Positions 24,776 to 44,700 of a stretch of 64,000 bases of DNA are shown one piece after another (position 1 is the stretch's first letter; the number at the start of each line of letters is the position of its first letter). A program made the position numbers and the translations under genes. The notes below the pieces were generated by a model, which was not told the origin of the DNA, did no database searches, and saw only the letters and a list, made by a program, of their open reading frames with translations. This stretch comes from an uncultured Candidatus Binatia bacterium (lineage in GTDB: Bacteria > Desulfobacterota > Binatia > UBA9968 > JAJDTQ01): assembly GCA_965213675.1 (NCBI GenBank), contig CBDCAF010000018.1, forward strand, positions 19,905-83,904, given 5' to 3'.

Positions 24776-24779
24776 TTCC

Positions 24780-24816: not shown

Positions 24817-24827
24817 AATCGGCAAGT

Positions 24828-28169: not shown

Positions 28170-28174
28170 GACCC

Positions 28175-31100
28175 ATGCCTGCGCCCGACCCACACACCCG
28201 CGCCCATCTCGAATGGCTCGGCTTCATCCAGCCGAACGGCCTCGTGGTCTCCGCTCCGGCCCTGGTCAAGGCTGGGGCCATCCTCAACCGGCACGATGTC
28301 GAAGGGCAGGAGTTGCTGGACGCTTGGTTGAACCAACGCGATGGATCGCCTGCGCGCCCTCGGGAACAGTGCCTCCAGGACTTCCGCGTATTCGCGAAGA
28401 CCATCCTCGGCTGGGGTTTCTCGCCCAAGGGATACGCGGGTACGGAGGAGACCCCTATCCCGGCGGCACTTAAGGTTCCTCTCCCCGACTACGGAGAGAC
28501 GCTGCGTCCGGACTTCGCGGTGTGCGAGCGCGACCCGCAGGCCGGGGAATTGCCGTGGCAGTTGCTCGTGCAGGTGCTGGAAGAGGGTGAAGGCTTCGAC
28601 AGGCCGACCGCCGGCGGACTGAAAACCTCTCCGCAGGATCGAATGGAGCGCCTCCTCCGCAGCACCGGAGTTCCTGCTGGTGTGCTCTTCAACGGCGCTG
28701 CGCTACGTCTCGTCTCGGCCCCGCGCGGCGAAAGCTCCGGCTGGATGGACTTTCGTTTGGCCGACATGGCCCAGACCGCGGGGCGGCCTCTGTGCGCGGC
28801 GTTGCGCCTTCTTTTGTGTGAGCAACGCCTGTTGACAGGGCCGAAGGAACATCGCCTGGCGGCGCTGCTCGCCGACAGCCGCCGGTATCAGAACGAGGTC
28901 AGCGAGCGGCTTTCCGAGCAGGTCATGCACGCACTCTATGACCTCCTTCGAGGGTTCCAGGCGGCCCAGGACGAATCCCGCGGAGAGCTGCTGCGGGAAC
29001 CGCTCTCCGCGGAAGGCGACCCCAACGACATCTATCGCGGCCTTCTCGCCGTCATCCTCCGCCTCGTCTTTCTGCTCTACGCCGAGGAGCGCCGCATGCT
29101 TCCGGGCGGCGAGACCTTCATCCAGCACTATTCGGTTGGCGGCCTCTACCAGCGCCTGCGCGAGGAGGCGGCCTTGCACCCGGATACCATGGATCAGCGC
29201 TACGGCGCGTGGGCGCAGCTTCTCGTGCTGTTCCGCCTTATTCACGACGGGGCGGGTGGGCACAAGACCGGAGGCAGCGTCAGCCTTCCGGAACGCCGCG
29301 GCGTTTTGTTCAACCCGGATCGGTATCCGTTCCTCGAGGGCCGTCACAGCGGCGGCGGCCGGCAGATCACCGAGCGGGTCCAGCCGCCGCTGGTCTCCGA
29401 CGGCGCCGTCTACCGGGTGCTGGAGAAGCTGGTAGTCCTCGACGGCGAGCGCATTTCCTACCGCACCCTGGACGTGGAACAGATCGGGTCCGTTTACGAG
29501 GTCATCATGGGCTTCCGTCTGGAGACCGCCACCGGCCGGTCCATGTCCGTCAAGTCCGCCAAGAAGCTTGGGGCGCCGAGCACCGTCGATCTCGACGAGT
29601 TGGCGAGACAGCCCGGCGAACGTCGTGGGAAATGGCTCCAGGACCGCGTGGACCGCACCCTCACCGACACCGTCAGGAAGGGACTGCGGGCAGCCGATAC
29701 GGTGGATGACCTTCACTTGGCGCTGGACCGGGTGCTGGACAAGGACGCCACGCCGGACCTCGTCACTCCCGGCTCCCTGGTGCTGCAACCCAGTGATGAG
29801 CGCCGCCGCTCGGGCTCCAACTACACGCCGCGGGAACTCACCGAACCGATTGTCCGCCACACTCTGGAGCCCCTGCTCAATCGGCTTCGCGGCGAGGATG
29901 GACAGGCACCGTCTCCCGCCCGGATTCTCGACCTCAAGATTTGCGATCCGGCCATGGGTTCCGGCGCCTTTCTGGTGGAAACCTGTCGCCAGCTCGCGGA
30001 TGCGCTCACCGAGGCATGGCACAAGCACGATGAGACGCCGGTAATCCCGCCTGACGAAGACGAGGGGATCCATGCCCGCCGTCTGGTCGCCCAGAAGTGC
30101 CTCTACGGCATCGACCGGAATCCCATGGCTGTGGACCTGGCCAAGACCTCGCTGTGGCTCAGCACGTTGGCGCGGGACCACCCGCTCACCTTCCTGGACC
30201 ACGCGTTCCGCCATGGCGACGCCCTCGTCGGATTGACCCGGAAACAGGCCGAGGCGTTCCACTGGATCCCGGATAGACCTCCTGAAGAGGGTTTCGAGAT
30301 CATGAGGGTGCGGGAACACATGACGGAGTTGGCCGCGCTGCGCCAGCGCATCAGGGACGCGGGCGAGGATGTCTCCGATCAAGAACTGCACGACATCTGG
30401 CAAGATGCGCGCGACGAGCTTGGCGCCGTCCGGCTCTACGGCGATCTGGCGCTGGCGGCGTTCTTCGCTGAAACCAAACGGGGGCCAAGGGAAGGGAAGA
30501 GGCGCGAATTCGCCGCAGCCGCCTGGGGTGGTCAGGCCGAGCGCTACCTGGGATGGATCGGGGACCAGCGCGGCAGCGACCCGCCGCTCGCTCCTTTCCA
30601 CTGGGAAATCGAGTTCCCCGAGGTGTTCGAGCGCGAGAATCCGGGGTTCGACGCGTTCGTCGGGAACCCGCCGTTCGCCGGGAAAAATAGCGTCGTCGCT
30701 GGTAACGTCGTGGGTTATCCCGACTGGCTCAAGACCGTCCACAGAGAGAGCCACGGCAACGCCGACCTTGTAGCGCACTTCTACCGGCGTGCGTTCAACC
30801 TCCTGCGTGAAGGGGGCGCGTTCGGTCTGATTGCCACCAACACCATCGCCCAAGGCGATACCCGTTCCACCGGACTGCGCTGGATTTGCGAGAACAACGG
30901 CTCGATCTTCCGCGCCACCAAACGGGTCAAGTGGCCCGGCGACGCGGCCGTGGTGGTCAGCGTGCTGCACGTCGCCAAGGGCGAATTTGCAGGAACCAAG
31001 GTGCTCGACGGCAGGGATGTGGAGAACATCACCGCGTTCCTCTTCCACAAGGGCGGCCACGCCGACCCGGCGCGCCTCGAAGCGAACGCCGGCAAGAGCT

Positions 31101-33325
31101 TCCAGGGAAGCATCGTCCTCGGAATGGGCTTCACCTTTGACGACACGGACAAGAAGGGCGTCGCCAACCCGCTGTCGGAGATGCAGCGGCTGATCGAAGC
31201 AGACCCGCGCAACGGCGAGCGCATCTTCCCGTACATCGGTGGCGAGGAGGTGAACACCAGCCCGACCCACGCCCATCACCGATACGTGATCAACTTTGAG
31301 GACTTTCCGTTGCGGAGGGAGGACCTGGGAAAGCAGTGGGCGGACGCGGGGGAAGACTTGCGCCGCACATGGCTGCGGCGCGGGGTGGTCCCGCTGGACT
31401 ATCCGGAGCCGGTGGCAGCGGATTGGCCGGATTTGCTGGCGATTGTGGATGAGCGAGTGAGGCCGGAGCGAAGCAAGCTCACGAAGAATCCCATCGGTCG
31501 AAAGCGAGCGGAGTTCTGGTGGCGTTACGGCTCGACGGCAAACGAACTCTACGCCGCCAGCGCCAGTCAGCCTCGAGTTTTGGTGATTTCGAGATACGGA
31601 CAAGTTGCTGCATTCACGTTCTTGCCCGCCGGCGCTGTCTATAGCGATTCATGCATCATATTCCCGGTCGACACCTATGCCGCCCTGTGCGTCCTCCAGT
31701 CCCGCCCCCACGAGATCTGGGTGCGCTTCTTTGGCTCGTCGATGAAGGACGACCTCCGCTACACGCCATCCGACTGCTTCGAGACTTTCGCTTTTCCTGA
31801 TGATTGGGCAACGGCCACGGCGCTGGAGGCCGCAGGCAAGGCGTATTTTGAGCACCGAGTGACGCTGATGCTCTGTAACGGTGAGGGTCTGACCAGAACC
31901 TTAAACCGCTTTCATGACCCCTACGATGGCAATCCGAATATCATCCGTCTCCGAGAACTCCACGCCGCCATGGACCGCGCCGTCCTCGACGCCTACGGCT
32001 GGACCGACATCCCCACCGACTGTGATTTCCTCCTCGACTACGAAATCGACGAGGCTACTTGGGGCGTGAAGAAAAAGCCGTACCGCTATCGCTGGCCCGA
32101 CAAAATTTGCGACGAAGTCCTTGCTCGCCTTCTCGCCCTCAATGTTGAGCGTTCCGAAGAGGAAGCCCGTGCACGGCTGGTGCAGAAGCCGGTCCGAAAG
32201 AAACGCCATCGCGTCCTGATGGTGGCAGAACAACCTCCTCTCTGGGATCGTCCAATGACTGACCAGACTCCACAGCGGTTCACGCCGTTGGTGAAGCGCT
32301 CTCGTCCCAAGCCTTCGACGATCTATCCGGTTCTCTGGAAATTTGCGTGTGAGCGCCAGCGGGTCTATCTACGGCGCGTCGCAGGCGACCCAAGCCCGTG
32401 GACTACGGACACTGTGCTGTCAGAATACAAGTTCACGAATGCCTTCAGAGCCGCTGACAGGGTGAGTCAGTACCTGATTCAGTTGATCTATTCTGATGCT
32501 AAGGCCAGCGGCGCCAACGTGTTTCTGAGAGCCCTTTTATTCAAGGTCTTCAACAAGATCGAGACGTGGGACAGGGTCGTTAACGGACTCGGCATGCCTG
32601 TCGCTCACGAGTTCGACTACGCGGCGTGCGACGATTTGCTTGTCAATCTTCGTCGGCAGGGGGCGCCGATTTACTCCGCCGCTTACATCATGCCATCGGG
32701 AGGACGAGTCGGGATGCCGAAGCACCGGATGCATCTCGAACTGATTCGCAGAATGCTTGATGAACGCCTTCCGGAGAAGCTGCAGGAGTCGAAGTCGCTG
32801 GCTGAAGCCTACGAGATGGTTCTTTTGTATCCCACGTTGGGACCCTTTCTCGCTTTCCAGTACGTTATCGACCTAAATTATTCGACCCTGATGAACCACT
32901 CGGAACAGAGATTCGTGGTTGCCGGCCCCGGCGCCTTGGATGGACTGTCCAAGTGCTTCGAGTCGCTTGGGGAGTATGATCCGGCCGACGCCATCCTATG
33001 GTTGTCCGACATCCAAGCGGACGAGTTCGCGCGGTATGGACTCGAATTCGGGGGTCTATGGGGACGCCCGCTTCAGCCGATCGATGTCCAGAATCTGTTC
33101 TGTGAGGTCTCGAAGTACACTCGGGTGACACATCCAGAGATAAGAGGCCTGACCAAGCGTAAACGCATCAAGCAAAGATTTGCGATGACAGGGCCGCTCG
33201 CCAAGCCCTTCTTCCCGCCCAAATGGGGCTTGAATCAACGAATTGACGAGTGGCTCCCGCGCCGAACGGGTGCAACTCTCGAACAACGCGAGCTTTTCTT
33301 CCCAACCCCAGCCAGGCCTACGTGA
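28175..33325 (+). CDS. drmMI: DISARM N6-adenine DNA methyltransferase DrmMI, fused in frame to a C-terminal aGPT-Pplase1-like domain (from 32255)
   Basis: DPAMGSGAF (motif I), FHWEIEFPEVF, GNPPF (motif IV), LRYTPSDCFETF; no stop before the second domain. Confidence 0.88.
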   Translation: MPAPDPHTRAHLEWLGFIQPNGLVVSAPALVKAGAILNRHDVEGQELLDAWLNQRDGSPARPREQCLQDFRVFAKTILGWGFSPKGYAGTEETPIPAALKVPLPDYGETLRPDFAVCERDPQAGELPWQLLVQVLEEGEGFDRPTAGGLKTSPQDRMERLLRSTGVPAGVLFNGAALRLVSAPRGESSGWMDFRLADMAQTAGRPLCAALRLLLCEQRLLTGPKEHRLAALLADSRRYQNEVSERLSEQVMHALYDLLRGFQAAQDESRGELLREPLSAEGDPNDIYRGLLAVILRLVFLLYAEERRMLPGGETFIQHYSVGGLYQRLREEAALHPDTMDQRYGAWAQLLVLFRLIHDGAGGHKTGGSVSLPERRGVLFNPDRYPFLEGRHSGGGRQITERVQPPLVSDGAVYRVLEKLVVLDGERISYRTLDVEQIGSVYEVIMGFRLETATGRSMSVKSAKKLGAPSTVDLDELARQPGERRGKWLQDRVDRTLTDTVRKGLRAADTVDDLHLALDRVLDKDATPDLVTPGSLVLQPSDERRRSGSNYTPRELTEPIVRHTLEPLLNRLRGEDGQAPSPARILDLKICDPAMGSGAFLVETCRQLADALTEAWHKHDETPVIPPDEDEGIHARRLVAQKCLYGIDRNPMAVDLAKTSLWLSTLARDHPLTFLDHAFRHGDALVGLTRKQAEAFHWIPDRPPEEGFEIMRVREHMTELAALRQRIRDAGEDVSDQELHDIWQDARDELGAVRLYGDLALAAFFAETKRGPREGKRREFAAAAWGGQAERYLGWIGDQRGSDPPLAPFHWEIEFPEVFERENPGFDAFVGNPPFAGKNSVVAGNVVGYPDWLKTVHRESHGNADLVAHFYRRAFNLLREGGAFGLIATNTIAQGDTRSTGLRWICENNGSIFRATKRVKWPGDAAVVVSVLHVAKGEFAGTKVLDGRDVENITAFLFHKGGHADPARLEANAGKSFQGSIVLGMGFTFDDTDKKGVANPLSEMQRLIEADPRNGERIFPYIGGEEVNTSPTHAHHRYVINFEDFPLRREDLGKQWADAGEDLRRTWLRRGVVPLDYPEPVAADWPDLLAIVDERVRPERSKLTKNPIGRKRAEFWWRYGSTANELYAASASQPRVLVISRYGQVAAFTFLPAGAVYSDSCIIFPVDTYAALCVLQSRPHEIWVRFFGSSMKDDLRYTPSDCFETFAFPDDWATATALEAAGKAYFEHRVTLMLCNGEGLTRTLNRFHDPYDGNPNIIRLRELHAAMDRAVLDAYGWTDIPTDCDFLLDYEIDEATWGVKKKPYRYRWPDKICDEVLARLLALNVERSEEEARARLVQKPVRKKRHRVLMVAEQPPLWDRPMTDQTPQRFTPLVKRSRPKPSTIYPVLWKFACERQRVYLRRVAGDPSPWTTDTVLSEYKFTNAFRAADRVSQYLIQLIYSDAKASGANVFLRALLFKVFNKIETWDRVVNGLGMPVAHEFDYAACDDLLVNLRRQGAPIYSAAYIMPSGGRVGMPKHRMHLELIRRMLDERLPEKLQESKSLAEAYEMVLLYPTLGPFLAFQYVIDLNYSTLMNHSEQRFVVAGPGALDGLSKCFESLGEYDPADAILWLSDIQADEFARYGLEFGGLWGRPLQPIDVQNLFCEVSKYTRVTHPEIRGLTKRKRIKQRFAMTGPLAKPFFPPKWGLNQRIDEWLPRRTGATLEQRELFFPTPARPT
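32255..33325 (+). CDS. aGPT-Pplase1 / 5-hmdU DNA kinase-associated helical domain (fused domain or internally initiated gene)
   Basis: ERQRVY..R..G...PWT.D.VL..YKFTN..RA.DRVSQY, GPFLAFQY.IDLNYS, GPGA..GL, DVQNLFCEVSKY; in-frame ATG at 32255. Confidence 0.8.
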   Translation: MTDQTPQRFTPLVKRSRPKPSTIYPVLWKFACERQRVYLRRVAGDPSPWTTDTVLSEYKFTNAFRAADRVSQYLIQLIYSDAKASGANVFLRALLFKVFNKIETWDRVVNGLGMPVAHEFDYAACDDLLVNLRRQGAPIYSAAYIMPSGGRVGMPKHRMHLELIRRMLDERLPEKLQESKSLAEAYEMVLLYPTLGPFLAFQYVIDLNYSTLMNHSEQRFVVAGPGALDGLSKCFESLGEYDPADAILWLSDIQADEFARYGLEFGGLWGRPLQPIDVQNLFCEVSKYTRVTHPEIRGLTKRKRIKQRFAMTGPLAKPFFPPKWGLNQRIDEWLPRRTGATLEQRELFFPTPARPT

Positions 33326-34397
33326 TTTCGCGGTAAAGAAGTTGCCGTTGATTCATGTCGAGCGTTACGTGTCCTCCCTCGTGTTCCCGGAGAGACCTGA
33401 ACACGCGATATCCTTTGAGAATGGCGGTTTCCCACCGCCATAGGGGAAGTTTGGCGACCTCGAAGCCTTGTATGAACTCCTTTACGGCCTTGAGCAGGTC
33501 ATAGTCGACCTGGTCGATATTGTCGTAGTAGTTCATTTTCTTTGCCCGGCTGAATACAATGGCGGATACGGCCTCTTCGATAATTCTCGCCCGCGCACCG
33601 TCCTCGTTCTCGTCCACCAGTGGATCGCTCTTCCGCTTGCACTTCAGTAGGTGTCTTATGACAGGTGACCATCCGAGGTACACGGCGTAAGCGAAATGGA
33701 AAACATCGTGAAACCGGTAGAAGTCAGGCTGTCCGATATTGTCCGTCAGGCGATCCCCGAAGTTCAGTCCGTTACACCGGAGTATGGCCGTCACCTTGCT
33801 GTCCCGCTGGACTTGGCGAAAGTCGATATCGAGTTTACGTGGGAGCTGTTCCTCTTCCGGGAAGCCCTCATCGAAGAAAGGTGGGACGACATACCTCTCG
33901 GGCCATCGGCTCTGCGTCTTTTCCTGGTTCGTTCGCGCGGCCTCGTAGAGGTCGACGCCGGCGCCTTCCGCAACGTGAAATAGGGCGTCCCAGGTTGGCC
34001 CAAGCCTTCCGGAATCCATTCGGTCACGGTTTTGCACTGCACTGAGTAATTCGCCCGCCGCAACCCCGAGGGCCACTCCATCCCCCAAGGGTCCTGGGCT
34101 TCGCCCCGATAGGGCCTGCGCTCGCTTGTTCGCACGGTTCAGTGCCGACGGATCAAGAATGGCGGAGAGGCGCGCCAAGTACCAAAGACAATCTCCGATT
34201 TCTTCGACGAGCCGCTTACGGTATGCGGGATAGGCGTCGGTTTCACGTTGTTCCTTTTTCAATTCGGCGAGAACACTCCCCGCTTCACCGAAAAGACCTG
34301 CCGCAAGGATGAGGGCGTGGTTCGGTTTGTCGACGAGTTGATCCGTTCGCTTTGCAGACTTGGCGTATTCAATGAGCCAAGACATCGGCTTTCTCAT
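33318..34397 (-). CDS. MazG-like NTP pyrophosphohydrolase with MazG_C domain
   Basis: GLFGEAG...KK...EEIGDCLWY, degenerate second MazG repeat, C-terminal DFYRFHDVFH (DxYRxHDxxH) and EDGARA..IEE. Confidence 0.88.
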   Translation of the reverse strand: MRKPMSWLIEYAKSAKRTDQLVDKPNHALILAAGLFGEAGSVLAELKKEQRETDAYPAYRKRLVEEIGDCLWYLARLSAILDPSALNRANKRAQALSGRSPGPLGDGVALGVAAGELLSAVQNRDRMDSGRLGPTWDALFHVAEGAGVDLYEAARTNQEKTQSRWPERYVVPPFFDEGFPEEEQLPRKLDIDFRQVQRDSKVTAILRCNGLNFGDRLTDNIGQPDFYRFHDVFHFAYAVYLGWSPVIRHLLKCKRKSDPLVDENEDGARARIIEEAVSAIVFSRAKKMNYYDNIDQVDYDLLKAVKEFIQGFEVAKLPLWRWETAILKGYRVFRSLREHEGGHVTLDMNQRQLLYREIT

Positions 34398-35163
34398 GTG
34401 CTTCCTTCAAGGAACGGAGATCGTCGAGCAGTTTCTGTAGCCGTCTTTCCGACCCCTCAAGGGTGGCATAAGACGAGTGGACCACCAGGGTGCCCATGTC
34501 CTGCCCGGTCTCTTTGGCGACACAATCCTGGAGGCGGGCCAAACCAAGCAGGTTGCCTGGTACCTTGTATCGGTAGTCATGGCTCCGGTAGAATGCTGTC
34601 AGGTGGACCGCACCAACGAAGAGCTTGAACGAAAGGTGGGAGAGACAAGGATCGCCCCGTCGGCGTTTACCGTCTTTCACCGTGTTGTAGAGGGGCATGT
34701 CGTATTCCCCTTCGGCGACATTAATGTCGTAACGGGATTTCATGGTTCCCTTGGTCGAAAGCTCCTTCTTCATATTGTCTATCATCTCCTTCAAGGGGTT
34801 CATGTCCGTGCCATCGGCTGTCTTTCGTCGAACCAGCCGATAGGCGTAGGTGTCCCAAAGGATCTTTGGATGCCGCTTGATCGCCGGAAAGGTCTTATCG
34901 GGGTAGTCGTCGTAGACGCCCTTCAGTCCCCGCCTGCGATATTCTGACAAGGGAAAGATCGTTTCGGCCACCGAGTGAATCGGTAGTTGGTTTTCGCCCA
35001 TAAAGAAGTCATCGAGTTTTTGCTCTGCGGCCTTGGGATAGCCCCTCTTTCCCGGTTCTCCGATCTCCAGCACAAGGTTCAGCATGGGACCGTTGGACAA
35101 CAGGAACTCGGCGGCGTCAACCCAGGCATCCATCCAGGCAGCGGTCTGGATCAATTTTGCCAT
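34369..35163 (-). CDS. thymidylate synthase-superfamily protein (possible dUMP hydroxymethylase)
   Basis: PCLSHL catalytic Cys, AFYRSHD, GNLLGL (Asn at the dUMP-specificity position), VVHSSYA; TGATG coupling to the upstream gene. Confidence 0.8.
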   Translation of the reverse strand: MAKLIQTAAWMDAWVDAAEFLLSNGPMLNLVLEIGEPGKRGYPKAAEQKLDDFFMGENQLPIHSVAETIFPLSEYRRRGLKGVYDDYPDKTFPAIKRHPKILWDTYAYRLVRRKTADGTDMNPLKEMIDNMKKELSTKGTMKSRYDINVAEGEYDMPLYNTVKDGKRRRGDPCLSHLSFKLFVGAVHLTAFYRSHDYRYKVPGNLLGLARLQDCVAKETGQDMGTLVVHSSYATLEGSERRLQKLLDDLRSLKEAHEKADVLAH

Positions 35164-35792
35164 CACGTCACCTCCTCCGTGAGGGCCAGTAGGTCGCGTA
35201 GATGACGGGCGAGGAAGGCGTCGTCGAGCCATGCATGGCCGTTGTCACCCCATTCGGCACCCCAGCTATTCCTGACCAGGAAGCACCGCGATGTATCGGC
35301 GGTCCCCAAACCGACCGCTACGACTGCGTGAAGACCTCGGATCGGGCCGTCGTGCGAGATTAACCAAAGAGGTGTAGGCGACAAAAAGTCGTCTGGTATG
35401 GAAATGCCGAGAACAGGCGTTTGCCCAGCGTTTAGCAGGGTTTCGACCTCATCTGCGGTAGCATCCTTCTGAACGCTCTTGCGTGGGTACAGTCGCACGC
35501 CTGCCGGTGGCATCCAGCCGAGAGGCAAACCGTCGGGATAGTAGGGGCAGTCTGCTTCCGCGGGCTGCCCAGGGTCTTGCAGGGCACGAGATGTCTCCAG
35601 GAATGCTGCGCCATCCGTCGGATTGTGGACCGACGCAAAGTAGTGGAGATACTCCGGCGAGAGCGCCATCTTGGAGCCGCGCACGCGTTCGTGTGCGCTC
35701 GTGCAGGCAAATGATAGACATGTGGGCCGGGCGCCCTGGTCCCGAATCGGGCCGAGGCTTTGCCGGTGGTCGACGAGAACGGTGATGTTCAT
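35163..35792 (-). CDS. papain-like C1 family cysteine peptidase, no signal or pro-peptide
   Basis: RDQGARPTCLSFA (Gln/Cys), LHAVVAVG (His), VRNSWGAEWGDNG (Asn); ATGA coupling. Confidence 0.9.
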   Translation of the reverse strand: MNITVLVDHRQSLGPIRDQGARPTCLSFACTSAHERVRGSKMALSPEYLHYFASVHNPTDGAAFLETSRALQDPGQPAEADCPYYPDGLPLGWMPPAGVRLYPRKSVQKDATADEVETLLNAGQTPVLGISIPDDFLSPTPLWLISHDGPIRGLHAVVAVGLGTADTSRCFLVRNSWGAEWGDNGHAWLDDAFLARHLRDLLALTEEVT

Positions 35793-36772
35793 GCTGCATT
35801 TGCCAGTGCGTCGAGTTTGGCTTTTCTCGGGAAGCCGCCGGATTCCTTTCCATGAGCATCGATTTTGATCGCGATATGGTCGAGTGTCGCGCCGCTCCAT
35901 GGGCGGGCGTGTTCAAAGGCGAGTCGATGTGTGCCAGGAGTATTGAAACGGACATACACGACACGGGCTGAAGGCCGTCCATAGACTCTGTCCGAGTCTG
36001 CTGTGTGCTCTGCGATGACCTCGGAGCTGGCTCCGGTGTCGATGAGCCTCCAGATGTAGCCGGCGGAAACGTTGTCCTCCAGATGGACTGCGAAGAGATC
36101 GTCGGGTCCGGCTTCGAGAAACGTGTCGGTGTCACCACAGGTCAAAGCCCAGACGTCGGCCCAGGAGTTCGTGATCAGTTCTGCGGGTGCCAACGCCCGC
36201 TTCAGTTCCTTGACCGGCGTCGCTTCGAGTTGTTTGGCTTCCGCGCGCGTAAGGACCTTGGACGTTACCAAACCCCAGCATGCGGCTTGGTAGCTGATGC
36301 CCAAGCGAAGGGAAAGTTGGTAGATGTTGCGCGGTTGATGCAGCTCTTGCCTTTTCCAGCCATGGCGTGTGGCGGATTCTACCATGAGCTGTTTTGATGC
36401 CAGCAGCTCCGAGGCAAAGGTGTCAGCGGCCACCTCCTCAATCGCACGTGACCCTGAAGCGTGACGTCCCGCGAACCCAACGGTTTTATCCAGGCTTGAC
36501 TCATGCCCCAGCACCCAGTGTCCGAGCTCGTGGGCCAGTGTAAACCGCTGAACGGCCAGTCCCATGCGACTCGTAACGATGATGCCTCGGGCACCCTTGC
36601 CAGCGGGAACAACGGCGCCCCAAAGATGATCCAGCGGCCGAAAGACGAGGGGGATGTCCCGCGTGGTGATCGCGCTGACAATGTCGAAACTGGTGCGGTC
36701 ACTCTTGGCAGTTGAGGCGAGAATCTTGGCTGCTTCTCTGACGGCTCGCAAAGTCTCGTTACGTCTGTTCAT
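35789..36772 (-). CDS. ImmA/IrrE metallopeptidase with C-terminal chagasin (I42 inhibitor)-like domain
   Basis: RFTLAHELGH, EVAADTFASELL, HTH-like segment; C-terminal LEDNVSAGYIW ... PGTHRLAFEHARPW. Confidence 0.85.
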   Translation of the reverse strand: MNRRNETLRAVREAAKILASTAKSDRTSFDIVSAITTRDIPLVFRPLDHLWGAVVPAGKGARGIIVTSRMGLAVQRFTLAHELGHWVLGHESSLDKTVGFAGRHASGSRAIEEVAADTFASELLASKQLMVESATRHGWKRQELHQPRNIYQLSLRLGISYQAACWGLVTSKVLTRAEAKQLEATPVKELKRALAPAELITNSWADVWALTCGDTDTFLEAGPDDLFAVHLEDNVSAGYIWRLIDTGASSEVIAEHTADSDRVYGRPSARVVYVRFNTPGTHRLAFEHARPWSGATLDHIAIKIDAHGKESGGFPRKAKLDALANAA

Positions 36773-37121
36773 CCGGTTTCCTCGACCGCAGGAATTGGGC
36801 GAAACGAAGAACCTCCTCCCGGTCGGTCACCGACAGTTCAGCGGTCGCCCGTGCTACCAGTCGTACCGACTCCGGCTCCGGGCTCTCCAGATCGGGTCCG
36901 GTGAGGCTCTCCATGTTGGTCTGATAGAGCGTGGCAAGGCGCTGAAGTTCCAATGCATCGACACGTCGCGCCCGATTCTCCATGAGTGAAATGGCGGATC
37001 TGGGAAGGCCGAGATGTGCGGCAACCTCTTCCTGGGTGAACCCGCAGTATTCCCGCGCCTCCTTTAGCCGCGTGCTCAGGGTGCCACGCTTGGCTGGCTG
37101 GCCGTGATTATCGTCGTTCAT
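36759..37121 (-). CDS. XRE-family HTH transcriptional regulator
   Basis: RLKEARE..G.TQEEVA..LG..RSAIS..E...R; GGAGG RBS. Confidence 0.92.
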   Translation of the reverse strand: MNDDNHGQPAKRGTLSTRLKEAREYCGFTQEEVAAHLGLPRSAISLMENRARRVDALELQRLATLYQTNMESLTGPDLESPEPESVRLVARATAELSVTDREEVLRFAQFLRSRKPDEQT

Positions 37122-37155
37122 TTACCACCTCCAATCGGATGGGTTGGCGTCAAGC

Positions 37156-37551
37156 TCAGGAGATCTTTCTCATCATTTCGGGTACAAGATGATCGATCAT
37201 GTCGTCGATGCTCTGGTAACCTCCAGGACGAATCAGCCGAACGTCAATGGGGCGACCTAGGTATCGCTGAAAAATCGGAGAGCTGCGGGCCACAGCCTTT
37301 GAGTCCAACTCAGGCATGGAATCCCACAGGTCGGAGTTGCTCCTGTCACTGACCATTCCGTTACGACTCGCTTCCACTTGTAAATCCCAGTCTCCCATCT
37401 CCTGACTCGCCCATTCCCTGAGTTCTTTTCTCAAGAGGGCCTCCTTGTTCGGCCCACGGCCCCTCACGGTCCTCAGCGTGGAGGTATCCCAGAACGAAAG
37501 GGGAATCTGGGATGAAGATTTAGGGGCTTGGGTAGGGATTTTGTGTTCCAT
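37156..37551 (-). CDS. divergent acyl-carrier-protein-like protein
   Basis: ELDS(84)KAV...IFQRYLGRPID..LIRPGGYQSIDDMIDHL follows the ACP helix II-IV spacing; adjacent to a PPTase. Confidence 0.6.
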   Translation of the reverse strand: MEHKIPTQAPKSSSQIPLSFWDTSTLRTVRGRGPNKEALLRKELREWASQEMGDWDLQVEASRNGMVSDRSNSDLWDSMPELDSKAVARSSPIFQRYLGRPIDVRLIRPGGYQSIDDMIDHLVPEMMRKIS

Positions 37552-37585
37552 AACGGAACAAGATTAGCACCGTAATGTTCGAAAG

Positions 37586-38257
37586 TCAAACATTGCGTTG
37601 GGGCAATTCCGGCTGTTGTGACAACAAGGCAACTGAGCCCACCCAGGGACGGACGGCGGTGGTGCAGCAAACCTCTACAGCGATTCGGTCGAAATGAGCA
37701 ACGCCGTTCATCATCCCTTGTGGCGCAACTTCCTTCCACGAGAGTCGTACGTTGTCGTAGCCGAATCGGACACCAAGAACAGGGTTCAAAGCCTTGAAAA
37801 CGGCTTCCTTCACCGACAGTAGGATCACCGAGCCTGCAACACCCCAGTCCAGAGGCAACTCGTCGGACGCGATCAGTCCTTTGATTGACAGGAGTTCCCG
37901 ACCGCGGTCCAGAGTCTCGATGTCGATGCCGACGGACCTCACGTGACTGATCCGAGATAGCCCAGCCACAACTTTGGTGCCTTTATGGCTCACGCTCCCC
38001 GTGTAACCCGGTGGCCAGTCTCGGGCGCCGGAGGCGAGGTGCCCTGGCTCATTGGCAGACAGCCCAGCACTCTCCAGCAGATTGGTCAGACAGGTCGCCG
38101 TGGCCTTCCGTCTCGCGCGTTCCACGACGGGGACACGTTCAGCGGACAGGACGTCCTGAGGGCCTGGTAGCCAATGCGCAAAAGAACCGCCCCTGATGCT
38201 CACTTCAGGTGCCAAGCGTTTGAGTTCGTCAACGAGGGGGTCACGTTGCAGATACAT
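37586..38257 (-). CDS. 4'-phosphopantetheinyl transferase (EntD/Sfp-like)
   Basis: WPPGYTGSVSH, VGIDIE, SVKEAVFKAL motifs. Confidence 0.85.
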   Translation of the reverse strand: MYLQRDPLVDELKRLAPEVSIRGGSFAHWLPGPQDVLSAERVPVVERARRKATATCLTNLLESAGLSANEPGHLASGARDWPPGYTGSVSHKGTKVVAGLSRISHVRSVGIDIETLDRGRELLSIKGLIASDELPLDWGVAGSVILLSVKEAVFKALNPVLGVRFGYDNVRLSWKEVAPQGMMNGVAHFDRIAVEVCCTTAVRPWVGSVALLSQQPELPQRNV

Positions 38258-38439
38258 GGTTTGATTTTTGCCGTTTACGGGTCTGCGTGGGGTCGATATC
38301 GGTTGGGTGCCGTGACGACGGCTGGCTTCTCGTTGTCTCCCGTGCCCCAGTTCTTCCGCTTGGGGCATATCGTCTCATCGGGTAACCTATTCTATAGGCC
38401 GCCGGTTCCGTGGGCGAGCCCCCATTGGACGCGATCCTG

Positions 38440-38838
38440 ATGGAAGCCAAACTCAAGCACCTTGAATTTATCCAGGGCGTAGTGAATCGCCTAGCGTCTG
38501 ACTCCTTCCGAATGAAGGGCTGGGCGGTGGCCTTGGTTGCTGCGTTCTTTGTCCTGTTGGCAAGGGAAGGACGGATCGAATTTGCCCCGATAGCCGTGGT
38601 TCCCGTGCTTGTCTTCTGGGGACTCGACGGCTACTTCCTGTGGCAGGAACGTCTCTTCCGTGCCCTGTACGATCACGTTCGGCGTGTGAGTGAAGTCGAC
38701 ATTGACTTCTCCATGGATGTCGGCCCGTTTCGAATGGGCTGGCGACGAACTTGGTTGGGCGCAACATTCTCGAAAACGCTGATCTTCTTCTACGGCGCGT
38801 TGACCATCGCTGTCGGCTTGGTGACGTGCATCTACTGA
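38440..38838 (+). CDS. small membrane protein (about 3 TM), candidate TIR-system effector
   Basis: KLKHLEFIQGVVNRLASDSF.MKGW, FWGLDGYFLWQERLFRALY; three hydrophobic stretches; 19 bp upstream of the TIR gene. Confidence 0.8.
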   Translation: MEAKLKHLEFIQGVVNRLASDSFRMKGWAVALVAAFFVLLAREGRIEFAPIAVVPVLVFWGLDGYFLWQERLFRALYDHVRRVSEVDIDFSMDVGPFRMGWRRTWLGATFSKTLIFFYGALTIAVGLVTCIY

Positions 38839-38857
38839 CCGCGAGGAGACACATCCA

Positions 38858-40608: not shown

Positions 40609-40633
40609 GGGAAGGTGTCAAGGAGGCGTGTTC

Positions 40634-40984: not shown

Positions 40985-40993
40985 TTTCCTACA

Positions 40994-41233: not shown

Positions 41234-41396
41234 ACCAAGTGACTGCCGACCTGCGAAGGCGACTCGTCGGCACAAGAGTCGATGCATGTGGTGTATGGGT
41301 GGTCACCATCATCCTGCGGCCCAGGCCGTCGGGTTGATCCCATGCCTAGAGATCCACGCCAATTGACAACCGCGGACCATCCCGTACGTTCAAGGC

Positions 41397-41777
41397 ATGA
41401 CCTACCGAGAGCCATTGCCCCCTGGATGTCCGCCGAACCCCGCGGACGAAATCAACCTGCCACGTGAGCTGTTCCGGTTGGTGCGGAGCCTTCCACCCGC
41501 CGCAGAGGACTTCAGATCGTGGCGCGCGGAACAACCGCAACGCGGTTTACCGAAGGAGTTGACGGAGTGCCAAGCCCGGGGACTGTCGGTCTATGCAGAG
41601 CGCTACGACCTGGAGAGCATCTTGAAGCTCCCGAAGTTCCGCGGACGTTGGATCTGTCGCCTGCGGCTGGGAGCGGGCGCGGGCCGGATTCAACAGACGG
41701 GGAGACCTTCGCACCATACTTGGTGGCCGCTGGCTGATTACGATTTCCTCGGCCAGTGTCACGTGGAAACGGCATGA
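41397..41777 (+). CDS. conserved-looking hypothetical protein, possibly ADP-ribosyltransferase-like fold
   Basis: LP.GCPP, LFRLV, DFRS, C.ARGLSV, HHTWW pattern (R...S...H); ATGA-coupled to the next gene. Confidence 0.65.
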   Translation: MTYREPLPPGCPPNPADEINLPRELFRLVRSLPPAAEDFRSWRAEQPQRGLPKELTECQARGLSVYAERYDLESILKLPKFRGRWICRLRLGAGAGRIQQTGRPSHHTWWPLADYDFLGQCHVETA

Positions 41778-44700
41778 GTACGATCCGTTACACCGCCAGT
41801 CTGCTGTACTACGACGGCCCACAGATCATCGAAGCCCGCGACGATGAGGGTCACGATTATCTGGCGTTGTTGGTGGAGAGTGACGGGGAAGACCGCTATC
41901 TGGCCGTGGAGGTTGCCGCTGATCGGTTGCACCAATTTCGCAATGGTTCGCTGGACTTGAGGACGCTGCTGACCGAGTCGGCGAAGAATGGGTGGTATCT
42001 GACGACGACCGCGGATCTCGATCAACCGTTGACGATTGTGCGCCAGCAGACGCCGGTCGGGGAAAGCGGATTTCTTCCCGCGGACGGCTTTGTGCTGCAT
42101 GAATTGGGCTCGCCCGTTGAGCGCAAGCAAGAGAGCGTTGAGATGCCCACGAGACCGCCGAAGCTTGCCGACTCCGCTGAAGCGCGCGCCGAAATCACCC
42201 GCGCCCTCCGCCTGGACCTCGTCGGCCCCGGCGCGGACGGCTATCTCGCCGACGAGCAACTCCCCGGTTGGGTGCGTCCGTCCAACTGGTACCTCACCGG
42301 CTTCCTTGTTCCACGCTATGCCGGCTTTGAGCAGCGCGCCGATGCGGACTCGGACGATGAGATGGAGCCGGAGGTCTGCGAGGACATAGGCGCTGGCGAC
42401 GACTCCAGCGAAGACCGTCGTGCCGCCAAGGCGGGGTTCTTTCCGTCGTCCATGGGTTTGAGCTTTCTCGCGGCGCCGGGGACCGACCGTGTCACCGCGG
42501 TCGTGCGCTGGGGCGACTACCGGAAGGTCGAGGGCAAGGTTTCCGCTGAAGAGGGAAGCGAATTGCCGGTTCGGTGGCAACGCACGCGGTGCGAAGCAAC
42601 CCTGTCCATGGTCTTGCCGGAAGACAATTCGCCGCGGCATCTGCCTGTGCCCCACTCACGGGGCCTCGAAGTCCACGTCGTGGCCCGGACCATGGACGCG
42701 AGCCTCTTTGCCGGGAAGATCGCTCGGGACACGCGCTCCGTCTCCGTATTTCTGGTCAACGCCCGAGCACCGGCCGAGGACGACCGGCGGGACGAGGCAT
42801 TTGCCTTTCAAGCACAGATCGAAGTGCAGTCCGATGTCCCTTTCGCCGTGCGGCCCGACCTTCGCCCTGTATCGGGCGACAACTGGGATGAACGGGTGGC
42901 CGACCTGCACTATGCCGATGTTCCCGAGTATGCTTCCGGGCACGGCGTGGCAGCGACTTGGGAGGTCCGGGGCGGCGCCTGTCATGCCTTGCGAACGGAC
43001 TGGACGCCCATCGCGGAAGTGGAGCATACCGAGCCGCTCACACACCTTGCCCGAACCGAACTGGACATGACTGCGCTGGGCCGGCTCGCCGATGGCGAGG
43101 CCGTGCGAACGGCTCTGATGCCGCTGGTATCCGGATACCGTGAGTGGGTCGAAGCGCATGCACTCGGAGACCTCCCGGAGCAGCGGAAAGAGGTCGCTCG
43201 GGAGTTGCTGCACCGTGCCCGCCTGGCGGCAAGGCGCATGGAAAAGGGCATCGGCGTACTGGCCTCCGATGTGGAGGCGCGAGATGCTTTCTGCATGGCC
43301 AACCGGGCCGTCGCTGCGGCATTGGCGCGGCGCATCGAAGACCCTCCCCGGTGGCGCGCCTTCCAACTCGCATTCGTGCTGTTGAACCTGCCCGGAATCG
43401 CCGACCCTTCCGATCCCGAGCGCGAGATCGTCGACCTGCTGTTTTTTCCCACCGGCGGCGGCAAGACCGAGGCGTATCTCGGTCTGGCGGCCTTCACCAT
43501 GGCGTTGCGGCGGCTGCGCAACCCTGCGGACAACGGACGCGCTGGCGCCGGCGTCAGCGTCATCATGCGGTATACGCTACGCCTGTTGACACTGGACCAA
43601 CTCGGTCGCGCCGCCGCGCTGGTGTGCGCGATGGAACTTGAACGTAAACGCGATGTTGAACGCTACGGCGTGTGGCCGTTCGAGATCGGCCTGTGGGTCG
43701 GCAAGGCGGGCACTCCCAACTGGCTCGGCAAGAAGGGCGACCGCAATTCGGATTCCGCGCGTGCCAAGGTCAACCGGTACAAGGACAATCCGCAGGCTCG
43801 GCCCATACCCATCCCGCTGGAGAACTGTCCCTGGTGTGCCCACAGGTTCACGCCCGATTCCTTTGCGCTGCTGCCGAACGCCGACGCGCCCACGGATTTG
43901 CGCATTTCTTGCTCGAACTGGGAATGCGAGTTTTCCGGCGACCCGCCGCTTCCTATCGTTGCTGTGGACGAGCCCCTGTACCGGCGTCTGCCGGCCTTTC
44001 TGATTGCCACGGTGGACAAGTTCGCGTCTCTGCCTTGGGTTGGACAGTCCGGGGCGCTGCTCGGCGGCGCGGACCGCTTCGATGACGAAGGGTTCTACGG
44101 CGCCGCCGACCCGCGAACAGGGAATCCGCTCACGACGCCGTTGTTGCCGCCCGATCTGGTGATTCAGGACGAGATGCACCTCATCTCCGGGCCGCTCGGC
44201 ACCATGACCGGCTTGTACGAGGCGGCCATCGAGACGCTGTGCGTGCGCGAGGCGGAGGGCCGGATCGTAAGGCCGAAGATCGTCGCCTCTACCGCCACCG
44301 TGCGGCAGGCCCACGAGCACATCCAGGCGCTTTTCGCCCGGCCCGACACCCAGGTGTTTCCGCCGCCGGGGCCGGACCGTCGCGATTCGTTCTTCGCCCG
44401 CACGGTCCCGGCCGCTGAGAAGAACGCTCGTCAGTACGTTGGCGTCGTGGCCCAGGGGCGCAACCCCAAGGTGGTGATGCGCCGGGTGCTGCTGGCGCTG
44501 ATGGCCGCGGCGGAGCGCGTCTGGCGGGACGCCGGCGGCCCGGGCAACAAGCAAAATCCCGCCGACCCGTACATGACGGCTCTCGGCTACTTCAACAGCC
44601 TGCGGGAACTCGGCGGGGCACGGCGGATTCTGGAAGAGGAAGTGCAGAATACGCTGAAGGGCTACAGCAACCGCAAGCGGCTCAATGAAGCGACGAGTCT

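Follow-up and report, generated by a model that had tools for sequence, protein, structure and literature searches.

A chagasin-type domain on an ImmA/IrrE-like peptidase, encoded next to a papain-family peptidase in a candidate bacterial defence cassette

Chagasins block papain-type enzymes via three loops, with Ki values in the pM-nM range (PMC7863939). Why should a bacterial regulatory metallopeptidase carry a domain of this family, and why should a papain-type peptidase be encoded directly downstream of it? The question is raised by a contig of an uncultured Candidatus Binatia bacterium (assembly GCA_965213675.1, contig CBDCAF010000018.1, positions 19,905-83,904 of the forward strand); this whole stretch of 64,000 nt is below called the window. 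Three overlapping genes at window positions 35163-37121 on the minus strand encode an XRE/CapH-like repressor, a fusion of an M78 peptidase with an I42 (chagasin-type) domain, and a C1 (papain-family) peptidase. The latter is complete but lacks a pro-region, and the three genes are translationally coupled and co-inherited.

Operon structure

The features of the locus are listed in Table 1. The genes for the repressor and the fusion overlap by 14 nt, the ATG of the C1 gene overlaps the stop codon of the fusion gene as ATGA, in agreement with the first-pass annotation, and the start of the thymidylate-synthase-like (TS-like) gene overlaps the C1 stop by one base. The order of the operon is PPTase-like (4'-phosphopantetheinyl-transferase-like), carrier-like, XRE, M78-I42, C1, TS-like and MazG/MazG_C, followed by a convergent 5-hmdU DNA kinase. 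This seven-gene order is conserved in a survey of 28 loci. Rather than being a self-contained system, the trio forms the central part of a conserved operon of seven genes, which has a convergent kinase and is situated inside DISARM loci, a context that the first-pass annotation missed.

Table 1. Features of the window around the M78-I42 gene
Feature	Position in the window	Strand	Evidence
DISARM DrmD (SNF2 helicase)	24828..28169	+	PADLOC
DISARM DrmMI fused to 5-hmdU DNA kinase domain (aa 1391-1665)	28151..33325	+	PADLOC, Pfam
MazG pyrophosphohydrolase + MazG_C, 359 aa, last gene of the operon	33318..34397	-	Pfam
Divergent thymidylate-synthase-superfamily enzyme, 264 aa	34369..35163	-	sub-cut-off Pfam/NCBIfam, PHROG
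Papain-family (C1) cysteine peptidase without pro-domain or signal, 209 aa	35163..35792	-	Pfam, profile
M78-I42 fusion, 327 aa	35789..36772	-	Pfam Peptidase_M78 + Inhibitor_I42
Fusion C-terminal tail, predicted disordered, conserved, aa 306-327	35792..35857	-	pLDDT, alignment
Chagasin-family (I42) beta-sandwich domain, fusion aa 205-305	35858..36160	-	Pfam, profile, predicted fold
ImmA/IrrE/CapP-like Zn-metallopeptidase + helical (HTH-like) part, fusion aa 1-195	36188..36772	-	Pfam, PADLOC, Foldseek
XRE/CapH-like HTH repressor, 120 aa	36759..37121	-	Pfam, PADLOC
Small conserved protein, 131 aa, candidate carrier	37156..37551	-	loci survey, AF2
4'-phosphopantetheinyl-transferase-like protein, operon gene 1	37586..38257 (ORF open to 38368)	-	weak Pfam/NCBIfam
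DISARM DrmA	41756..45556	+	PADLOC
DISARM DrmB	45466..47382	+	PADLOC

The M78-I42 fusion

The fusion had been annotated as an IrrE-type HELGH metallopeptidase. Its N-terminal part matches Pfam Peptidase_M78 (PF06114) well above the cut-off (aa 61-165, E 1e-9, 38.7 bits against 22) and the PADLOC capP profile (7.1e-16). The residues H81, E82, H85, E113 and D117, that is, the HExxH motif and the downstream acidic ligand, are invariant in 25 members of the fusion family, which bears out the annotation. A Foldseek search with the predicted model returned IrrE (3dti, 1e-5), PprI (8sln) and CapP (7t5t, 3.6e-3), and the IrrE/PprI/CapP-like predicted fold spans the first 170-190 or so residues, including the helical middle domain.

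The C-terminal domain matches Pfam Inhibitor_I42 (PF09394) at aa 224-302, covering profile positions 5-89 of 91 (E 3.1e-10, 40.6 bits against a cut-off of 27.2). A profile of the domain compared with PDB sequences gave EhICP2 (0.0043) and chagasin (0.08). The AF2 model of the fusion, of moderate confidence (pLDDT 72.8), has strands across aa 207-304. In this region EhICP2, amebosin and chagasin rank first among the PDB matches, at target TM values of 0.61-0.70, as would be expected of the Ig-like I42 fold (EhICP2 3m86, E 2e-6, TMt 0.70; chagasin 2h7w/2nnr, 5e-5, TMt 0.65-0.67). Thus the earlier assignment of this domain to the chagasin family is upheld both by Pfam and by the predicted fold.

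The canonical chagasin loops are N-P-T-T-G-[YF]-x-W (L2), G-x-G-G (L4) and R-P-W (L6). The motifs quoted in the first-pass annotation are indeed present, at L231..N234.S236-A-G-Y-x-W241 and R290-P291-W292. The loop L2 keeps S-A-G-Y-x-W but lacks N-P-T, L4 is reduced to Y-G with a single glycine, and R-P-W in L6 is invariant. Positions S236, G238, W241, R290, P291 and W292 are the same in all 25 family members, and conservation is higher in the loops than elsewhere in the domain (13 of 20 positions against 30 of 81 at 90% conservation or higher, p=0.04). All 103 matches of this I42 subfamily carry M78, I42 or both, and no other architecture was found in a word-indexed search of proteins of 179-573 aa, which reaches fairly close relatives only. 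The tail that follows the domain has pLDDT below 50 at aa 309-327. Despite this predicted disorder, G308, E310, G313, R316 and L323 are invariant, and the protein ends with [A/V/G]-A in 22 of 25 members.

The fusion departs from the three-domain architecture of IrrE and CapP, as its C-terminal domain is I42-like and not GAF by Foldseek on the predicted model. In IrrE/CapP one half of the groove that binds ssDNA is made by the GAF domain (10.64898/2026.05.16.725639), and in the model the place of GAF is taken by the I42 domain. Thus sensing of ssDNA or DNA damage cannot simply be assumed, and an ssDNA trigger is doubtful. A cysteine switch in the loop after HExxH is described for a third of CapP proteins (10.1101/2022.04.27.489752); inspection of the fusion sequence shows no cysteine in this loop.

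The papain-family peptidase

The 209-aa product of the next gene matches Pfam Peptidase_C1 (PF00112; E 5.5e-10, 40.1 bits against a cut-off of 20.7). The single-sequence match is confined to aa 154-189, whereas a profile of 21 orthologues aligns with nearly the whole length of mature enzymes: positions 4-190 with Der f 1 (2.2e-17) and positions 7-188 with cathepsin K (5.6e-16). The residues Q19, C25, H155, N175, S176 and W177 are invariant in the 21 orthologues. The protein begins seven residues ahead of the D-x-R that opens mature papain-like domains, Pfam gives no match to the I29 pro-region at E ≤ 0.01, and no hydrophobic signal-like N-terminus is seen by eye. The initial description of a papain-type peptidase with an intact Q/C/H/N set and without a pro-region therefore holds. 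The papain motif around the catalytic cysteine is G-S-C-W; here the cleft has diverged to P-T-C-L. Judging by the sequence, the protein is an atypical, probably cytoplasmic member of the family without a pro-region, rather than a non-member. There are 717 relatives, and the best 120 of these are all 204-224 aa long.

Distribution of the pair

The fusion family comprises 723 relatives (clusters) at E ≤ 1e-3 from eight or more phyla; among the 120 listed of these 723, both Pfam domains are present in 117, with PF09394 taken from the precomputed annotation. An intact C1 gene lies directly downstream of the fusion in 23 of the 28 loci, and a one-base start/stop overlap recurs in 12. The paired loci come from Binatia, Thermodesulfobacteriota, Gammaproteobacteria, Vicinamibacteria, Longimicrobiales, Planctomycetota, Spirochaetota and Holophagales. 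As the arrangement recurs in this many loci from several phyla, the gene pair is not due to chance.

The 4.53-Mb genome of the window contains exactly one I42 match and one PF00112 match, and these are the two neighbours. Each of five other genomes also has one I42 match, and four of them have a single C1 match. The fusion is thus the only I42 domain in all six genomes, and its neighbour is the only C1 peptidase in five. Among 301 genomes of one class, four have both genes adjacent and two have the fusion without an intact C1, whereas none has an intact C1 without the fusion; the sole C1 found without it there is a 139-aa fragment missing the catalytic cysteine. The putative antidote is sometimes orphaned but the putative toxin, when intact, was never seen alone, an asymmetry typical of toxin-antidote pairs. 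These observations support the fusion and C1 genes being a dedicated pair. Since the only papain-type protease of the genome directly follows the fusion, the two resemble a proteolytic toxin and its antidote within an anti-phage gene island. In a mirror-tree analysis of 48 pairs, the correlation with C1 was no higher for I42 (r=0.898) than for M78 (r=0.900), and no signal specific to I42 was seen. The cassette is present in just one of 301 genomes of the window's phylum. No published description of the fusion or the pair was found in a literature search.

The repressor

The XRE protein matches Pfam HTH_31 (1.7e-10) and HTH_3 (1.4e-9), as well as PADLOC capH (1.1e-11, profile positions 7-100 of 103). 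Besides the HTH, 19 orthologues share an acidic linker and a helical segment conserved at the C-terminus, as expected of CapH-type repressors, in which an HTH is joined to a C-terminal dimerisation part. The gene is present in 27 of the 28 loci. Activated CapP cleaves CapH (10.1101/2022.04.27.489752). As the XRE and M78 genes match capH and capP of PADLOC, cleavage of the XRE repressor by the M78 peptidase is a reasonable analogy. In CBASS the capH-capP genes lie upstream of the regulated operon and are divergent from it (10.1101/2022.04.27.489752), whereas here XRE comes third in an operon whose genes all share its strand. The gaps between the operon genes hold ribosome-binding sites and are too short for a promoter. 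No conserved operator was found upstream of the first gene.

Other genes of the cassette

The carrier-like gene, present in 25 of the 28 loci, has a conserved core of about 90 aa preceded by a variable, poorly conserved and disordered N-terminal extension of some 35-40 residues. D83-S84-K85 are invariant. The AF2 model (pLDDT 66.6) consists of four helices, and S84 stands where helix 2 begins. Pfam gave no match for 13 members even at E ≤ 5, and the fold searches gave none that is significant. The best Foldseek match is an ACP chain (E=1.2), the VIA search gave no Z ≥ 5 with carrier proteins in 11 of 50 rows, and the ESM Atlas gave one cluster at score 0.91, in which 18% of members have PP-binding. 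The protein P0323 is a natural fusion of a carrier-like protein with a PPTase. Acyl and peptidyl carrier proteins are recognised by a PP-binding family match, a four-helix fold and a serine at the beginning of helix 2; the 131-aa protein is a candidate carrier protein.

The PPTase-like protein, encoded in 22 of the 28 loci, matches Pfam ACPS (4.3e-4) and 4PPT_N (7e-4), both below the cut-off, and NCBIfam PptT (2.5e-6), far below the cut-off; the blocks G-[IV]-D-[IV]-E and K-E-A-x-x-K are conserved in 17 sequences. The TS-like protein (17 of 28 loci) matches Pfam Thymidylat_synt at 4.1e-5 and 23.3 bits, just below the cut-off of 24.3, NCBIfam thy_syn_methano at 4e-10, also below the cut-off, and the PHROG thymidylate synthase at 8.5e-6. 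The MazG/MazG_C protein is assigned by Pfam (MazG_C 1.8e-78, MazG 5e-5), and its gene, whole or as a fragment, occurs in 18 of the 28 loci. The kinase (HMUDK) is found in 16 loci, in most of them as a separate convergent gene. The four loci L005, L014, L019 and L022 contain the module from PPTase to C1 but no TS-like, MazG or HMUDK genes.

Defence context

The cassette is antisense within apparent class 1 DISARM loci, between drmMI and drmA. Class 1 DISARM combines drmD, drmMI, drmA and drmB, along with drmC; the search for the first four in the window gave DrmD (PADLOC 2.8e-303), DrmMI (PADLOC E=0; Pfam HMUDK_hel 8.2e-93, Eco57I and MmeI domains), DrmA (PADLOC 2.6e-277) and DrmB (PADLOC 2.7e-80). 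The GC content is 0.56-0.60 across about 31.5-41.5 kb of the window and 0.65-0.67 outside; the cassette is located in this inserted low-GC island, with DrmA and DrmB on its far side. DISARM genes lie within 8 kb of the cassette in 11 of the 28 loci as well as in the window, and other loci adjoin CBASS, IetA, PD-Lambda-1 and further defence matches. CapH/CapP-like genes have been reported with defence systems, DISARM included (10.1101/2022.04.27.489752).

Possible mechanism

We lean towards the explanation that the three genes provide both control and effector at the core of a horizontally mobile cassette of defence islands, with the C1 protease as the effector and the fusion as its regulator and antidote. 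The I42 domain would insert its three conserved loops (S-A-G-Y-x-W, Y-G and R-P-W) into the active-site cleft of C1, which would be held inactive at 1:1 stoichiometry; it is from this inhibition that the regulatory and protective role of the fusion, and the toxic or effector role of C1, would follow. By analogy with CapH/CapP, DdrO/IrrE and ImmR/ImmA, the activated M78 peptidase would cleave the XRE repressor and de-repress the operon. This would add the PPTase-like, carrier-like, TS-like and MazG/MazG_C proteins, acting beside the 5-hmdU DNA kinase and DISARM. More speculatively, with the part of the ssDNA groove that GAF would supply missing, something other than ssDNA may be the activating input, and it could be occupancy of the I42 domain itself. 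C1 might then be set free when the fusion, with its conserved disordered tail ending in A-A or V-A, is lost or turned over. Several observations count against this explanation: a fused, co-translated inhibitor leaves no evident release step; the I42 loops deviate from canonical chagasin and the C1 cleft has diverged beside the cysteine; the XRE gene is on the same strand inside the operon, with no conserved operator found upstream of the first gene, and the AF2 confidence is moderate; and the mirror-tree lacks an I42-specific signal. A bolder form of this explanation, to which we give a low probability, takes the whole eight-gene block for an undescribed inducible defence cassette within DISARM operons. 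Its papain-type effector would be kept inert by the chagasin domain on an ImmA-like regulator, in what would be the first toxin-antidote pair of a protease and a canonical inhibitor; I42 occupancy, rather than GAF-bound ssDNA, would gate repressor cleavage, and a single sensor would then drive both the release of the protease and the induction of the operon.

The position of the I42 domain, exactly where IrrE and CapP carry their GAF sensor domain, also suits a different explanation: C1 may be not a toxin but the ligand of the I42 domain, its binding or release switching the M78 peptidase, so that XRE cleavage and operon expression follow how much protease is present or what state it is in. 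The strict dedication of the pair is consistent with this, and so is the lack of a cysteine-switch residue in the fusion, which calls for some other gating mechanism. Such feedback is unlikely, as it leaves unexplained why the protease exists at all and why intact C1 is absent without the fusion. If instead C1 matures or activates another protein encoded by the cassette, such as the carrier-like, PPTase-like or TS-like protein, MazG or the 5-hmdU kinase, I42 would only time this step. The C1 gene is indeed in the same operon as most of these and overlaps the TS-like gene at its stop, the seven-gene order is conserved, and the carrier-like protein has its variable, disordered N-terminal extension. 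However, the four loci without TS-like, MazG and HMUDK genes show that those three are not obligatory substrates, and we consider a processing role quite unlikely. Finally, the I42 domain might be a decoy that binds a papain-like peptidase of a phage and thereby activates M78. Chagasins are broad-range inhibitors (PMC7863939), and papain-family genes are common on viral contigs, where 489 of 598 matched stretches encode relatives. Yet the viral relatives are at most 32% identical to the C1 of the window, and the strict genetic coupling to the host C1 would have no explanation, making the sensing of foreign proteases very improbable.

Comparison with known systems

In CapH/CapP of CBASS, DdrO/IrrE of Deinococcus and ImmR/ImmA of ICEBs1 and prophages, like here, an HTH repressor is combined with an M78 peptidase. 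Shared features are the repressor gene directly before the peptidase gene, the IrrE-like predicted fold, and HExxH with the downstream glutamate. Unlike these systems, the fusion of the window has I42 for GAF and no cysteine-switch residue, and the pair belongs to the same-strand operon that it would regulate, with a protease gene translationally coupled to it. This points to a modular sensor scaffold in IrrE/CapP, on which a protein-binding domain can replace GAF, and it bears on how such switches are triggered.

With the chagasin/ICP family (MEROPS I42; chagasin, EhICP2, ICP of Leishmania and Pseudomonas) the domain shares the predicted Ig-like sandwich, G-Y-x-W and R-P-W. Known chagasins are encoded as small proteins of their own, many of them secreted, periplasmic or membrane-anchored, that target host or lysosomal enzymes, whereas here the domain makes up the C-terminus of a regulatory peptidase of the cytoplasm and its presumed target is co-operonic and cytoplasmic. 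A type of inhibitor so far seen as stand-alone in parasites and a few bacteria would thus be placed inside a cytoplasmic bacterial conflict system, and papain-family proteases would become candidate abortive-infection or toxin effectors. The pair is small, soluble and easily tested.

Staphopain and staphostatin of Staphylococcus aureus (C47 and I57) are likewise a bacterial cysteine protease and its dedicated inhibitor. They share an operon, and staphostatin protects the cytoplasm. Their folds are unrelated to I42 and C1, staphopain is secreted and is made as a zymogen that has a pro-region, and staphostatin is not fused to a regulator. The pair is listed as a cysteine protease with a dedicated protein inhibitor in PMC7863939.

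Another parallel is provided by modules with an HTH protein and an M78 peptidase beside a potentially toxic third gene in defence islands. Three-component Xre-COG2856(ImmA-like)-toxin modules and HTH-M78 fusion antitoxins are known from comparative genomics of type II TA systems. The search with the cassette also gave PADLOC RmrA and NCBIfam spr1629-type matches. The difference is that the third gene here encodes a papain-type protease, which would be neutralised by a canonical inhibitor domain grafted on the peptidase; no description of such a third gene or grafted domain in these modules was found in the literature searched.

The downstream half of the cassette carries the same domains as nucleotide-modification defence or hypermodification genes. 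Anti-phage activity in E. coli has been demonstrated for a system with a thymidylate synthase and a 5-hmdU DNA kinase, and a defensive role has been predicted for MazG/MazG-C (PMC13092281). In the text of that report such systems are not described with a protease, I42, an XRE/M78 switch or a PPTase (ImmA, XRE and cysteine have 0 occurrences). The cassette joins DISARM with a nucleotide-modification arm of the 5-hmdU type and with a pair of PPTase-like and carrier-like genes, and is a tractable entry to the layering of defence systems within one operon. Unlike in the nucleotide-modification systems, the 5-hmdU kinase of the window is fused to DrmMI.

Gene organization and domain composition

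The gene of the XRE-type protein overlaps the start of the gene encoding the M78-I42 fusion peptidase by 14 nt, and the ATG of the next gene, encoding a papain-family (C1) peptidase, shares bases with the stop codon of the fusion gene (ATGA). The three genes are translationally coupled. Both Peptidase_M78 and Inhibitor_I42 exceed the curated Pfam cut-offs on the fusion protein, and its N-terminal half is matched by capP (PADLOC, 7.1e-16). These Pfam placements, together with the PADLOC capH and capP matches, therefore confirm what the first-pass annotation had seen, namely an IrrE-type peptidase fused to a chagasin-like domain and coupled to a papain-type protease: by Pfam, PADLOC and the gene coordinates, the layout, domains and motifs were right in every particular.

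Features of the cassette and its surroundings, in window positions
Feature	Position	Strand	Match or remark
484-aa ORF, directly upstream of drmD, opposite strand	23390-24844	minus	PADLOC candidate PDC-S27 9.7e-28
DrmMI-5-hmdU DNA kinase ORF, 1724 aa	28151-33325	plus	PADLOC DrmMI E=0; kinase domain aa 1391-1665, 8.2e-93
Low-GC island	~31500-41500		between drmMI and drmA
C1 peptidase, 209 aa	35792-35163	minus	Pfam Peptidase_C1
M78-I42 fusion peptidase, 327 aa	36772-35789	minus	Pfam Peptidase_M78 aa 61-165, Inhibitor_I42 aa 224-302
C-terminal tail of the fusion, aa 306-327	35792-35857	minus	predicted disorder
XRE-type HTH protein, 120 aa	37121-36759	minus	PADLOC capH 1.1e-11
131-aa protein	37156-37551	minus	invariant D-S-K
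PPTase-like gene, first of the operon	37586-38257	minus	weak family matches
5+5 bp inverted repeat	38386-38398		CCTAT-AGA-ATAGG
PDC-M50A, small protein	38410-38838	plus	1.7e-45
ThsB-like TIR protein	38858-39355	plus	ThsB 3.2e-67; PDC-M50B 1.5e-62
HEC-01A ATPase	39352-40608	plus	7.2e-150

The fusion peptidase and its I42 domain

The fusion peptidase has 723 relatives at E<=1e-3. Both Pfam domains are present in 117 of the best 120 listed, nearly all of which are 324-338 aa long. In an alignment of 25 members the HExxH residues H81, E82 and H85 are invariant, as are E113 and D117, and the peptidase is complete as judged by its catalytic residues. Also invariant are S236, G238 and W241 in loop 2, G265 in loop 4, and R290, P291 and W292 in loop 6 of the I42 domain. 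Within aa 205-305, conservation of at least 90% is seen in 13 of 20 loop positions versus 30 of 81 elsewhere (Fisher p=0.04). The fusion loops depart from the canonical chagasin/I42 motifs in L2 and L4.

When compared with PDB, the family profile matches IrrE in its N-terminal part (0.0034), and EhICP2 (0.0043), Leishmania ICP and chagasin (0.06-0.08) at aa 207-297. The AlphaFold2 model, which is of moderate confidence (pLDDT 72.8, pTM 0.73), consists of a helical part, peptidase plus HTH-like, followed by a beta-sandwich at 207-304. The best PDB matches of its N-terminal 170-190 residues or so are IrrE, PprI and CapP; those of the C-terminal domain are EhICP2 (E 2e-6, target TM 0.70), amebosin, chagasin (target TM 0.65-0.67), PbICP-C and Pseudomonas ICP. 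Since the predicted fold matches ICP and chagasin structures, the proposed Ig-like I42 fold is borne out. Chance resemblance to I42 is rejected on the Pfam score above the cut-off, the fold and the conservation taken together.

The C-terminal tail retains invariant G308, E310, G313, R316 and L323 in the 25 members despite its predicted disorder, and 22 of them end with [A/V/G]-A. It resembles protease-recognition tails, and may serve as a turnover or docking signal.

The C1 peptidase

The catalytic set of the C1 peptidase is complete: Q19, C25, H155, N175, S176 and W177 are invariant in all 21 orthologues. The family profile aligns with the mature domains of Der f 1 (2.2e-17) and cathepsin K (5.6e-16) over nearly their full length. 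The protein starts seven residues ahead of the D-x-R with which mature papain-like domains begin and has no Pfam match to the I29 pro-region, so that an intact Q/C/H/N set without a pro-region, as had been claimed, holds. The best 120 listed of its 717 relatives are all 204-224 aa long. Direct reading of the sequences of the fusion and C1 revealed no signal-like N-terminus in either. The surroundings of the catalytic cysteine differ from those in papain, with P-T-C-L in place of G-S-C-W.

Pairing of the fusion and C1 genes

One genome per species was scanned, and near-full-length relatives of the fusion turned up at 28 loci. The genomes concerned belong to Binatia, Thermodesulfobacteriota, Gammaproteobacteria, Vicinamibacteria, Longimicrobiales, Planctomycetota, Spirochaetota and Holophagales. 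A full-length C1 gene directly follows the fusion gene in 23 of the 28 loci (including L007, with a probable frameshift), a truncated remnant in two (L012, L024), and no C1 gene is found after the fusion in three (L013, L016, L025). In three of the five loci without a full-length C1, the fusion gene itself is frameshifted, interrupted or truncated. By coordinates, the last sense codon of the fusion and the C1 start overlap by one base in 12 loci, as in the window.

The pair is exclusive. The genome of the window (4.53 Mb, 97.7% complete) has one PF00112 and one PF09394 match, which are the neighbouring C1 and fusion genes. Each of five other genomes, from different lineages, has a single I42 match, which lies in the cassette every time; their C1 matches number 1, 2, 1, 1 and 1. 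In the class of one carrier (301 genomes), the fusion and C1 are adjacent in four genomes and the fusion lacks an intact C1 in two, the only C1 found there without a fusion being a 139-aa fragment devoid of the catalytic cysteine. No intact C1 without the fusion was seen among the genomes examined, a small sample in which kin are not independent. The presumed inhibitor does occur as an orphan, and a toxin-antidote pair would be expected to show this kind of one-sidedness.

The two genes are also co-inherited. A mirror-tree comparison of 48 pairs gave no I42-specific signal, the correlation with C1 being 0.898 for the I42 domain versus 0.900 for the M78 domain; L028, with stops in its tblastn range, was left out, and 34 of the 48 pairings were made via a source sequence of identical size. 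The family is sporadic, occurring in one of 301 genomes of the window's phylum. On viral contigs the C1 peptidase of the cassette was not found, only distant C1 relatives (best 31-32% identical). A prophage origin of the cassette is rejected on this result and on the chromosomal context embedded in DISARM.

Possible regulatory mechanism

I42 inhibitors are described as binding via three loops with pM-nM Ki, and their complexes with papain, cathepsins and falcipain have been solved (PMC7863939). By analogy, the I42 domain of the fusion may block the cleft of the neighbouring C1 peptidase, which would make the fusion the antidote and C1 the effector. The M78 domain, for its part, would cleave the XRE repressor and so induce the operon, as in CapH/CapP, DdrO/IrrE and ImmR/ImmA. 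The interpretation in the first-pass annotation, a peptidase that both restrains the protease and cleaves the repressor, is thus partly supported.

The activating signal may differ from that of CapP. IrrE and CapP have a GAF domain at the place taken by the I42 domain in the fusion, and a preprint on the CapP mechanism describes the GAF domain as one wall of the ssDNA-binding groove (10.64898/2026.05.16.725639). As this half of the groove is absent from the fusion, activation by ssDNA is not to be assumed; an attractive alternative is that the I42 domain, by being occupied, provides the input. A cysteine switch has been reported for a third of CapP proteins (bioRxiv 10.1101/2022.04.27.489752). 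The loop after HExxH in the fusion (aa 96-106) is predicted to be disordered and contains no cysteine, and hence the fusion has no switch of this kind.

Upstream genes

The first two genes of the operon and the XRE gene are separated by gaps of 34 nt with ribosome-binding sites. The 4'-phosphopantetheinyl-transferase-like (PPTase-like) protein has the blocks G-[IV]-D-[IV]-E and K-E-A-x-x-K, which are PPTase motifs, conserved in 17 sequences. Carrier proteins recur among the weak fold matches of the 131-aa protein, below significance, and a natural 656-aa protein (P0323) combines DUF1611_N, 4PPT_N and ACPS with the small domain of the 131-aa protein. These data are suggestive of a carrier protein, perhaps one that is phosphopantetheinylated and belongs to a defence cassette.

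The capH-capP layout described for CBASS is divergent (bioRxiv 10.1101/2022.04.27.489752), whereas the XRE gene here lies inside the operon. A search for an operator ahead of the operon's first gene, covering 17 loci (the window and 16 others), found none, there being no conserved inverted repeat of at least 6 bp. The divergent region of about 150 bp upstream of the PPTase-like gene of the window contains a shorter repeat with a 3-bp spacer.

Downstream genes and defence context

The C1 gene is followed, with successive start/stop overlaps, by a divergent thymidylate-synthase-superfamily (TS-like) gene and a gene encoding MazG plus MazG_C, the latter domain matching at 1.8e-78. The DrmMI-kinase ORF is convergent with the operon. 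These enzymes resemble those of a thymidylate synthase/5-hmdU kinase defence system, reported as validated in E. coli, and of MazG/MazG-C systems for which a defensive role is predicted (PMC13092281). In the cassette, a protease arm is probably coupled to one that modifies nucleotides or DNA. The fusion of DrmMI with the kinase suggests that DISARM methylation and DNA modification of the 5-hmdU type are functionally linked.

The low-GC island (GC 0.56-0.60 versus 0.65-0.67 outside) interrupts a probable class-1 DISARM operon: DrmD precedes DrmMI, and DrmA and DrmB lie beyond the island. It contains the cassette, a ThsB-like TIR pair (PDC-M50) and the HEC-01A ATPase. The PDC-M50A, TIR and HEC-01A genes point away from the cassette.

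The gene order of the cassette is conserved over the 28 loci, with the PPTase-like gene present in 22, the 131-aa protein in 25, XRE in 27, the TS-like gene in 17, MazG (whole or fragment) in 18, and the 5-hmdU DNA kinase HMUDK, mostly as a separate convergent gene, in 16. DISARM genes are at most 8 kb away in 11 of the 28 loci. As in the window, DrmMI lies beyond HMUDK in seven loci, and in 4 of the 22 loci with scanned flanks DrmA is encoded upstream of the PPTase gene on the opposite strand. Cassettes lying antisense between drmMI and drmA are found in other phyla, too (L003, L006, L011, L017 and others). Neighbours in other loci are CBASS, IetA, PD-Lambda-1, PD-Lambda-2, PDC candidates and type I restriction genes. 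Four loci (L005, L014, L019, L022) keep the module from PPTase to C1 without the nucleotide-modifying genes.

NCBI names the relatives only 'ImmA/IrrE family metallo-endopeptidase' and 'C1 family peptidase', and PADLOC (2023) has no model for the C1, TS-like, MazG, PPTase-like or 131-aa proteins of the cassette. Our literature search found no link of chagasin/I42 with ImmA/IrrE, CapP, phage defence or DISARM; a 2013 comparative-genomics paper outside the search, which reportedly defined HMUDK and MazG_C, may mention the neighbourhood. The novelty is the combination of an HTH/M78 switch with a protease-inhibitor pair, each of a kind already known. With moderate probability, the cassette as a whole is a defence system not yet described.

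In two loci (L001, L002) the DrmMI and kinase parts are likewise adjacent on one strand, most others having a separate kinase gene. In some genomes the cassette seems to be decaying or invaded: insertions of about 1.3 kb to 3.7 kb separate the TS-like gene from MazG in L011 and L017, or interrupt the fusion gene in L024 (L024:8609-9940).
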